Shown here piece by piece: positions 3,283-5,994 of a DNA stretch of 64,000 bases. The stretch is from NCBI GenBank assembly GCA_049719805.1, contig JBNARF010000002.1, positions 423,926 to 487,925 of the forward strand, written 5' to 3'. A program made the translations under genes and the position numbers. Position 1 is the stretch's first letter; the number at the start of each line of letters is the position of its first letter. Source of the stretch: Candidatus Hydrothermia bacterium. Its GTDB lineage: Bacteria; Hydrothermota; Hydrothermia; UBA1063. A model generated the notes under the pieces. That model was not told where the DNA came from, made no database searches, and saw nothing but the letters and a program-made list of their open reading frames with translations.

Positions 3283-5994
3283 TAAAATAACCTCCTTTGA
3301 GAGTCTTCATGCCTTATTTCATCTACCAACTTATCTTTCCCGCCCAGGAATCCATCTAAAAGTCTCTTTTCTCTGCTATCATCAGGTAAAGTCTCTGAAA
3401 TTGCCTGAGCAACCCTGTAAAAAGCTTTGCTTAAACCATATCCAGTTTCCTTCAGGACTTCTTTCATTTTTTCCTTTTTCCCGTCTTTCCAGAGTATGAG
3501 AACTTTGTGAAGCACGTCAATCATCTCCCGGGGGTTTTTTAGATCATCAAGTTTTCTGTCCTGAGGGCCAAGAACAATTATGAATTCCTTATCTTTTTTT
3601 ATAAAGCTTTTATTCCATTCCTCTTCAACATTTACACCTGTTGATTGGGCAAGTTTTCTTGCATCATCAAAATGAACCTTTGCCTCCTGGTAAGTCCATC
3701 TCCACAAAATATAAAATCTTGTAAGTGGTGAAAGCTCTCCCGCAATGCCGTTGTGGAGAATTTGCCTTACAGCATAATCTGTGACAATCTCACGGACATA
3801 ATTAAGCAATTCTCCTGCGCTAATCTCATTACCCTCATAATCCATGATCTTTTTGTATTTTCCAAATATCTCAATGGCTGAACCAATGGCAGCGATGAAA
3901 TAATCGGCACCGCTTATTCCCTCTTCCCAGAGCATCTCGAGCTTTTCTGTGATGTGTTTTTTCATCTCCTCCTTTACTTCATTTAGCCAGCCTGTTTCTT
4001 TTCTTTCTATTTTTCGACACACAAGGTAAATAGAAGAAGAAAGAGCTGCGGTTTCTTTAGCTGTAAGTCTTGTTTTCATTTCAGTATCAATGGGCCAGGA
4101 TGCAGTTACCACTAAGTTAGATTCTAAAAGCGAGTTTATTAATGTTTCCCAGCCTGATGTTGATTTATGGGTATAAACAATGGTTGCAATTCCATTGGGT
4201 TTTAAGACACGGTGAATTTCTTGGAAAGCTTTCTTAAGCATACTTTCAAAGAATTCCTTAGCTTTCTTTTCATTTCCATGTCTGACTGGGTTTGCAACTG
4301 TTTCTTTTGACTTTGGGACTAAGGGAGTTAAAAACAGTTCGGGATAAAGATCTCCAATGCTTCTTTTTAGCCAGACATAGAAGAAATCAGAAAGTTCAGC
4401 ATAGTTTATATTGTCATAATAAGGGGGGTCTGTAAAAACCGCATCAAAATAGTTATCAGTATAGGGAAGCTCTGTGGCAGAGGCTTGGGTGATGGTTGGG
4501 ACTAAGGAATAGGGACTGGGGGTTGTGGCAATTTGGGAAAGGTGAGAGAGAACATTAAGTATATTATTTTTGAGGATGTTTTGATACGAATATCCCTTCT
4601 CGGAAAAAAATGTTTGTTTCGATATAATCCCAATTCATAGGGAGAGCTTGTCTAGCAAAGGTTGTAGATATTTTTTCCCATGTTCCATCCCAATGACAAA
4701 GTGTAGAATTTGTGTCTGCTAACCTACTAGGTATAAACACCAAATAACTCACCACTGCCTTTGCATACTCTTTATCATATCCTTCTTCAAGCATTTTTTT
4801 GTAGGCAAGTCTTCCTTTCTCGGTAAAGGTAATCAAAGCCAGTTTCTGGCGCGAATTGAAGAGGTTGCCCCATTTGAGCATTCCATACCTTTGAACACGA
4901 AAACCAAGGGTTTCTTTCGGAGGTAATTCCTCATCTGGCACAGGGTCAATGCCCCATTCTTCCATAAGTTTTTGCCTTTTTTCATTCAGATACTTTTGTG
5001 CTTCTTTGAAGATCTGGATGTCCCTTTCCTGTGCAAGTCTGTACCTTTTTCCGTCTCTTCCGGGCTTGTGTAGAACCACGGCAACCATCCTTTCTCCTGC
5101 TTTTCCTTCCTGAAAGAGCTTCCTCGTTCTTTTGTCGTCAACCACAGAACCGCAGACGGGACAAACCGCTATAGCCCTTGAAACCGTCCCCCTTGTGGGG
5201 TCAAAACCTTCGGGCATTTTCTCGTATCCATCGCCCACTATCTTAAATTTGACCTCTCTTCCCTCCACAAAAGGATAGAGTGAAACCTTTTTGTTTTTTT
5301 TCTTTGCAAGCCAGAATTGTCGCATTAAGGGAATCTCAGCACCGCAGGTAGGGTTCTGGCAGGGGATAGTCCTTGCCCATATGTAGCCCACGGGTATTGA
5401 ACCATCTTCATCTTCAGGATAAAATCTTCCGATTTTTTCTTTTGCCTCTTTAAGAACCCAATTCCCCCATTTTTTTACATCTTCAAGGAGGGGATTTATG
5501 GTATGGGTCCCAAGGATACCCTGCTTGTTTTTAACTTCCACTGGTCTACCATATTTTTGGGGATATTCAAGTGTGCATTTCAGAATTAGCGTGGCAACGG
5601 GATTGTATTCGATTGCATGTGCTTCACAACCAATGCGAAGAGCTTCGAGGGGGATTGAACCTCCACCAGCAAATGGATCGAGAATTCTCGGGGGTTTCCC
5701 GTTGTTTACCTTCAAAACATTTTCTCTTGCTTCTGTGATTATTCTTTTATTCAGACTGTTCTCCCATTTTGAGAGTTCTATTATGAAATTTTTGATCTTT
5801 TCGCGTTCTGCGGAGTCATCTGTGGCTGGAATCAAAGCAGCAAAATTTGTTGCCCTTGAAGAGGCCAAAGGACGGCGTGCCCACCAGATATGTAGTGTTG
5901 AAATGTGCCCGTGCCTTATATTTTTCTCCCTTACAGATTCTTCGCTTACTTCCTTTATCGGAAAGCTCACTTCAATGAACCGTTTATCGTTCAT
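3282..5994 (-). pseudogene. DUF1156-family Zn-ribbon N6-adenine DNA methyltransferase (COG1743/PglXI-like), disrupted by two frameshifts
   Basis: The N-terminal 476-aa ORF has [13 protein letters not shown], the SAM motif [13 protein letters not shown] and the Zn ribbon [10 protein letters not shown]. The catalytic [26 protein letters not shown] motif is read by hand in a third frame between 4380 and 4440. That frame runs into the 319-aa C-terminal ORF. The frame changes are at the A7 tract 4604-4610 and near 4422-4442. Confidence 0.75.

Follow-up and report, generated by a model that had tools for sequence, protein, structure and literature searches.

A single frameshift, probably a recent slippage mutation, interrupts hmaB of a predicted Hma defense operon in Candidatus Hydrothermia

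What has interrupted a DUF1156 methyltransferase gene that sits between a full-length helicase gene and a full-length ATPase gene, and is the interruption a property of the organism or of its assembly? The gene in question, hmaB (5994..3282, minus strand), encodes a predicted DUF1156 N6-adenine methyltransferase and lies between hmaA and hmaC in the window, by which we mean the whole 64-kb stretch of metagenome-assembled genome (MAG) sequence analyzed here. An earlier note, made from the letters alone, had recognized an interrupted DUF1156 methyltransferase on the minus strand, and this reading held: Pfam identified DUF1156, and the 476-aa open reading frame (ORF) ended at 4564 as described. 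The same note had the gene running through three reading frames with two frameshifts between them, a claim that did not survive translation of the locus.

The N-terminal ORF of 476 aa (5994..4564, minus strand; ATG at 5994, TAA at 4566..4564) comprised 463 native residues, then 13 residues read out of frame, and the TAA, and it held the SAM-binding motif I (DPFAGGG, 5679..5659) together with DUF1156. Catalytic motif IV (DPPY, 4430..4419) and the C-terminal domains lay in a second open frame of 450 codons (3282..4634, minus strand). When 5994..3282 was translated in all three frames, this downstream frame showed zero stops from 4634 until the stop codon at 3284..3282 and was continuous through a 66-residue stretch; the peptides that had been assigned to a second and a third frame adjoined one another within it, and the true third frame contained only an unrelated 43-aa ORF (4502..4633). 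hmaB carries one frameshift, not two. The supposed junction at a G6 tract likewise dissolved, as the frame runs straight through that tract, which lies at 4423-4428 (one base from where it had been placed) and codes for the D-P-P of motif IV, and the CCGG reported at 4438-4441 reads ACCG. A 319-aa ORF (3282..4241) does exist as noted, not as a unit in a frame of its own, but merely as the part of the 450-codon frame that follows its first ATG. What remained of the original description was its functional core, namely, that a frameshift cuts the N-terminal part off from motif IV: DPFAGGG and DPPY occupy different reading frames in the window.

The position of the frameshift was narrowly bounded. 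Both open frames overlap for only 68 nt (4567-4634), within which lies an exact A7 tract (4604..4610; T7 on the coding minus strand, flanked by G and T), and the chance of a run of at least 7 in 68 nt was ~0.04 given the density of such runs in the window (39 of at least 7, and 180 of at least 6, in 64 kb). Removal of one base from the A7 yielded a single 903-aa ORF in which T6 restored the frame as ATT TTT TCC (I F S), so the earlier note was right to place a frameshift at this tract, and for the single ORF of about 900 aa that it had asked about, a one-base correction at the A7 alone suffices. Alignment with homologs put the shift between NIF and SEKGY, that is, inside the T7 run, and the corrected 903-aa HmaB aligned end to end with homologs of ~900 aa. 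Across the junction, the homologs read WDYIETN, then I or V, then a further 10 residues, and the homologous loci gave 12 residues, again I or V, and 10 more; at the codon level, locus L003 has AAT ATC TTT TCT versus AAC ATT TTT T TCC in the window. Because homologous loci such as L003 read unshifted at this point, the ancestral hmaB sequence was ATT TTT TCC (T6), to which the window has added one T. A correction at the A5 run that directly precedes the stop (4567-4571) also gives 903 aa and was set aside on the grounds that homologs conserve SEKGYSYQN directly after NIF.

The identity of the corrected protein was clear from several profile families. It matched PADLOC HmaB over residues 3-791 (E=1.2e-142), Pfam DUF1156 (PF06634) over residues 11-60 (E=1.5e-22), and Pfam N6_N4_Mtase over residues 517-632. 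The NCBIfam model DUF1156_antiphage ("anti-phage-associated DUF1156") was matched in complementary halves, by the N-terminal fragment at positions 181-346 and by the C-terminal part at 563-849, with a score under the equivalog cut-off because each fragment had been scored alone. In a search of 5.8 billion proteins, the matches listed included at least 120 HmaB homologs, all of them single ORFs and nearly all ~880-950 aa long, which with one exception covered 94-100% of the corrected sequence; the comparison with orthologs that the earlier note had proposed thus returned unshifted single ORFs among these matches. Identity to ~900-aa proteins was 68-88% at 100% coverage, the best match being at 88%, and the search yielded no intact hmaB allele that clusters at 90% or above.

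The neighbors of hmaB place it in what is, by gene content and domain composition, an Hma (helicase-methylase-ATPase) system, lately re-described as the Type-1 DUF499-centered BREX-related (BR) system (PMC12839542). hmaA (7420..10761, minus strand; PADLOC HmaA E=4e-208) is intact and encodes a 1,113-aa SNF2/DEAD helicase with the Pfam domains Helicase_C, ResIII, SNF2-rel_dom, and, at residues 986-1073, NOV_C (a PD-(D/E)XK nuclease), its length agreeing with those of its relatives in L002 (1,113 aa) and L003 (1,114 aa). Intact, too, is hmaC (733..3282, minus strand; PADLOC HmaC E=8e-117), which encodes an 849-aa DUF499 AAA+ ATPase and whose start ATG overlaps with the stop of hmaB (TAATG). Partial coverage of the PADLOC profile had raised the suspicion of a truncated hmaC, which end-to-end alignment with homologs of 837-887 aa dispelled. 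A scan for operon promoters and terminators returned sites no more numerous than in shuffled controls.

A further interrupted gene lies between hmaA and hmaB. The 300-aa (6540..7442) and 79-aa (6307..6546) ORFs on the minus strand found no match in Pfam, NCBIfam, or PADLOC, and a word-indexed search with them recovered one close relative only. An exhaustive HMMER search raised 47 remote relatives, most of them ~440-460 aa long and of the Schlafen/AlbA_2 plus HATPase_c_4 type, and against these ~450-aa homologs the two ORFs resolved into a single inserted gene (6307..7442), with homolog residues 1-312 mapping to 7442..6555 and homolog residues 313-394 to 6552..6310, each segment in a frame of its own. 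The break is not at a homopolymer, and the same split (296 plus 79 aa) is present in L002; because it is common to L002, the lesion in the Schlafen-like gene is older and real. The operon as a whole belongs to a variable defense island bounded by a tRNA-Asn(GTT) gene (14722..14796, minus strand; ARAGORN and Rfam): synteny with L053, from a related 1.69-Mb genome, begins exactly at 14722, upstream of which L053 carries MmeI/Eco57I-type genes and no hma.

Near-identical assemblies bear on whether the seventh T is genuine. Two NCBI MAGs of Candidatus Hydrothermia bacterium encode proteins exactly matching the 476-, 319-, and 849-aa products, the contigs concerned measuring 297 kb and 580 kb. MAG M1 (GCA_049722865.1; L001 and L058) carries the T7, is identical to the window over 1-11994, and differs from it across 26.8 kb at two single-nucleotide polymorphisms (SNPs; 14850 and 19393) and nowhere else, all homopolymer lengths being equal. 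The LptB encoded in the window matches only the protein of the other of these two MAGs, and from this match and the SNPs it follows that two assemblies separately recovered the T7. In principle, a systematic platform error could produce T7 in both of them. A third MAG, M3 (GCA_049701535.1; L052, L057, and L059), is 99.97% identical to the window over ~37.6 kb and has T6 at the hmaB site; 16 of the 20 large proteins tested were identical in all three MAGs. Every one of the four homopolymer differences between M3 and the window is a one-base deletion in M3, the other three being in hmaA (A6 to A5, 8156), in hmaC (A8 to A7, 1841), and in a SHOCT-like gene (T7 to T6, 27635). One-base homopolymer deletions are the signature of long-read consensus error, and the T6/T7 polymorphism, together with the M3 hmaA and hmaC frameshifts, may be artifactual.

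Sequencing or assembly error would make the true hmaB a T6 gene, intact, with the extra base a homopolymer miscall in the MAG consensus. The source is indeed a MAG, the lesion is indeed a single homopolymer base, and M3 does read T6; miscalls are also plausible in a gene as AT-rich and run-rich as hmaB, given that among ~35 complete loci in other GTDB representative genomes, almost all of which are MAGs, ~5 have frame changes in hmaB, at positions other than that of the window. Set against this, T7 was called in two assemblies that differ at two SNPs and yet agree in homopolymer length throughout 26.8 kb, and the 64-kb window contains no other homopolymer-linked split gene despite its 39 runs of at least 7 (further split-gene candidates from a +/-1 scan of the window were dropped when Pfam showed them to be neighboring complete genes). 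Moreover, at the other three runs that differ from M3, the window allele is the one that leaves the ORF intact, which marks the window assembly as the reliable one. An error would also have to be an insertion, and on long-read platforms insertion miscalls are rarer than deletions. We therefore regard a miscall as an unlikely source of the seventh T.

M3 and a more distant relative carry lesions of another kind. In M3, hmaB has a nonsense codon at R394 (AGA to TGA; window 4812), and in the JGI contig L060, which shares 98% DNA identity in this region, hmaC has one at G620 (GGA to TGA; window 1423-1425); as substitutions, these two cannot be homopolymer artifacts. In L002, from the same JGI sample as L060 and at 95-98% nucleotide identity, hmaA and hmaB are intact. 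The enrichment of lesions in hma genes was modest (roughly p = 0.02-0.06), since of the 13 runs of at least 7 in the first 16 kb, 11 fall within these genes; the concentration of lesions in the hma and SHOCT genes was accordingly only modestly non-random, these genes being rich in long runs. A scan of JGI metagenomes with a degenerate pattern spanning the hmaB site and allowing T5-T8 gave 0 matches.

The T6 and T7 alleles in genomes 99.97% identical are also what slipped-strand phase variation would predict, with the tract serving as a reversible ON/OFF switch of Hma, and the three further one-base changes in A/T runs between the window and M3 (two of them in hma genes) fit the same picture. 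Slipped-strand phase variation is known from Type III mod genes. For BREX-type systems, a homopolymer in brxX is the precedent for the phase variation proposed for pglX/brxX (PMC6326788). The tract in hmaB, however, is short, one among 180 runs of at least 6 in 64 kb, and homologs do not preserve it: the run at the site varied from 2 to 6 in length across 32 homologous loci, only one of which has T6. The T6 genome is moreover not "ON," for M3 has its nonsense codon upstream in hmaB; the two substitutions in hma genes could not be reverted by slippage; and the T6 call in M3 may itself be a deletion artifact. On balance a phase-variable switch seems quite improbable.

Two ways in which the interrupted gene might still yield a working methyltransferase were weighed. 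A split enzyme of two subunits was rejected, because a search of the downstream frame from 4634 to 4241 for ATG, GTG, or TTG upstream of DPPY found none, the first canonical start being an ATG that lies beyond motif IV, at 4241. Recoding, by contrast with a split enzyme, would deliver full-length HmaB from the T7 allele, either through +1 ribosomal frameshifting on UUU-U or through transcriptional slippage on the U7/A7 run. Were tRNA-Phe to slip by +1 from one UUU onto the UUU that overlaps it, exactly the ancestral N-I-F-S-E-K would result, and the 450 downstream codons are without a secondary lesion, a state for which near-zero divergence among the MAGs also accounts. Programmed recoding nevertheless appears highly improbable: the at least 120 homologs among the matches listed and the majority of loci in relatives lack the shift, and the site is unconserved; inspection of the sequence showed that the site is not preceded by a Shine-Dalgarno-like element and that UUU is followed in frame by a common Phe codon; and the RNA downstream folds only weakly (-10.1 kcal/mol at 37 C, z = -2.05). 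Seven U's are, in addition, fewer than efficient transcriptional slippage requires.

The explanation that we favor, and consider probable, is a genuine and recent T6-to-T7 slippage mutation that nulls HmaB within a defense island under repeated, independent inactivation. Among the three causes offered in the earlier note, pseudogenization with the helicase and ATPase kept is thus the one that fits best, because hmaA and hmaC are full length, T7 is present in two MAG assemblies, and related populations bear independent hma lesions; its suggestions of assembly error and ON/OFF switching fare less well. As we envisage it, the hmaB T6 run (ATT TTT TCC) would have gained one T, presumably by replication slippage, whereupon translation would depart from the native frame after residue 463 and terminate 13 codons on. 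The truncated HmaB would retain DUF1156 and SAM motif I and would be without DPPY and the C-terminal domains; since the product would be without DPPY and the downstream part has no canonical start, HmaB is predicted to be null. That all 450 downstream codons have stayed open argues that the lesion is both real and recent, and because T7 is one of several independent inactivating hma mutations in near-identical populations, Hma would appear to be in the course of being lost or shut off. Loss of translational coupling may in addition lower the expression of hmaC. At least for modification, the Hma system of the window is most likely non-functional, judging by its sequence.

How a cell might tolerate the loss of the methylase while the helicase-nuclease is kept can be approached through studies in Escherichia coli. 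Deletion of brxX from the E. coli BREX system leaves cells viable and abolishes methylation and defense alike (PMC6326788), and HmaA expressed alone in E. coli is tolerated and defends its host (PMC11232893). By analogy, it is plausible that a genotype with broken hmaB and intact hmaA and hmaC is viable, either because restriction, and not modification alone, depends on the methylase, as in BREX, or because HmaA is not self-toxic.

A stronger version of this account, in which every lesion is genuine and a sign of active selection to turn Hma off, is possible and we hold it only tentatively. Were it true, three or four near-clonal populations, otherwise a few SNPs apart, would between them carry at least 4 or 5 independent inactivating mutations of hmaA, hmaB, and hmaC, and the genotype of broken hmaB with intact hmaA and hmaC would persist in two such populations. 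This would amount to evidence from natural populations that Hma, like BREX, depends on its methylase for restriction and self-marking alike, so that methylase loss would be a safe way to shed Hma, and short A/T runs in AT-rich defense genes might act as de facto mutational off-switches. Irrespective of that version, the best annotation for the locus is an Hma (Type-1 BR) operon that is complete but for a single frameshifted hmaB pseudogene, rather than two lesions or three genes, with the 300-aa and 79-aa ORFs annotated as one split Schlafen-like pseudogene. It offers a small, clean example of the decay of a defense island through independent lesions in near-identical environmental populations. 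To our knowledge, Hma is still a poorly characterized BREX-related system, and the locus hints that loss of its methylase is tolerated while the helicase-nuclease and ATPase stay intact, which bears on self/non-self discrimination.

Compared with known systems, the locus resembles other Hma systems in its three core genes, arranged here in the canonical order on one strand, and in their domains, HmaB having an N-terminal DUF1156 and an N6 methyltransferase core (DPFAGGG, DPPY), HmaA a C-terminal NOV_C, and HmaC a DUF499 domain. A foreign gene is reported to lie between hmaA and hmaB in ~66% of hma loci (PMC12839542; PMC11232893), and the window likewise has one there. It differs in that its hmaB is frameshifted and its inserted gene is a split Schlafen/AlbA_2-like pseudogene. 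With phase-variable methyltransferases (Type III mod, pglX/brxX) it has in common a homopolymer within a defense methyltransferase ORF and an apparent one-base length difference between near-identical genomes, which may be a consensus error; unlike in these, the tract here is short, an A/T run unconserved in orthologs, and its companion lesions are nonsense substitutions. Genes with programmed frameshifting or slippage (prfB, dnaX, and IS3-family transposases) similarly have a slippery, U-rich run where the frames meet, whereas the shift in the window is unconserved and without a stimulatory element, and its orthologs are unshifted. The closest likeness is to ordinary homopolymer-frameshift pseudogenes of restriction-modification and other defense genes, with which the window shares a one-base insertion in a short run, loss of a catalytic motif, intact orthologs elsewhere, and decay in neighbors and sister lineages, and from which nothing substantive sets it apart. 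As far as its sequence allows it to be classified, hmaB belongs with the ordinary frameshift pseudogenes, as a member of a known defense methyltransferase family in a new host lineage.

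In the comparison with L053, a related Hydrothermia genome of 1.69 Mb, the window's synteny had its exact limit at a tRNA-Asn(GTT) gene (14722-14796, minus strand). Because L053 has fragmented MmeI/Eco57I-type restriction-modification genes where the window has the hma island, the latter (1-14721) is a variable, tRNA-associated defence island. Its remaining portion (10902-14106, minus strand) comprised a GNAT acetyltransferase-like gene and two ORFs, of 102 aa and 445 aa, for which no matches were found in Pfam, NCBIfam, or PADLOC. Elsewhere in the window, an 81-bit Rfam match (RF00174) identified a cobalamin riboswitch at 52380-52559 (minus strand), upstream of a 554-aa ORF (50685..52349).

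Between hmaA and hmaB, ORFs of 300 aa and 79 aa (6307-7442, minus strand) are the two pieces of a single, very divergent Schlafen/AlbA_2 plus HATPase_c_4 (COG2865-like) gene. The change of frame fell near 6540-6568, outside any homopolymer, and the C-terminal wHTH of the ~450-aa homologues was absent. Among 5.8 billion proteins searched, the sole close relative was the copy on L002, a JGI metagenome contig with 95-98% nucleotide identity to the window, and this copy was split likewise.

Other lesions were found in closely related populations. In the sister MAG GCA_049701535.1 (contigs L052/L057; 99.97% identical), A/T runs were one base shorter than in the window at 1841 in hmaC, 8156 in hmaA, and 27635 in a SHOCT-like gene, each of these deletions disrupting its ORF; they may reflect either real decay or long-read consensus errors. 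The same MAG had a nonsense codon in hmaB at window position 4812. On L060, a contig that comes from a JGI metagenome and shares 98% identity with the window, codon 620 of hmaC was changed from GGA to TGA (contig position 279; window 1423-1425), a further, independent inactivating lesion of the Hma system.

Across GTDB representative genomes, tblastn revealed apparent frame changes in ~5 of ~35 complete hmaB loci (L035, L036, L038, L041, and L048), and several others had apparent insertions, 330-1100 nt long, following residue ~488; either kind of change may be genuine or a MAG error. Within the window, hmaB is a mosaic, judging from its protein alignments: identity to the L002 homologue was 96-100% across most of the length but just 26-56% at residues ~348-500 and ~557-587 (window 4492-4740 and ~4230-4330), where the window instead matched alleles of distant taxa, L003 and L004 (the latter an archaeon), at 86-100% identity. 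The hmaB frameshift, one extra T in a T7 run (A7 on the plus strand, 4604-4610), lies within this variable segment, for which a specificity-determining role is possible, and the overall pattern of hmaB resembles what cassette exchange of such a segment would leave.
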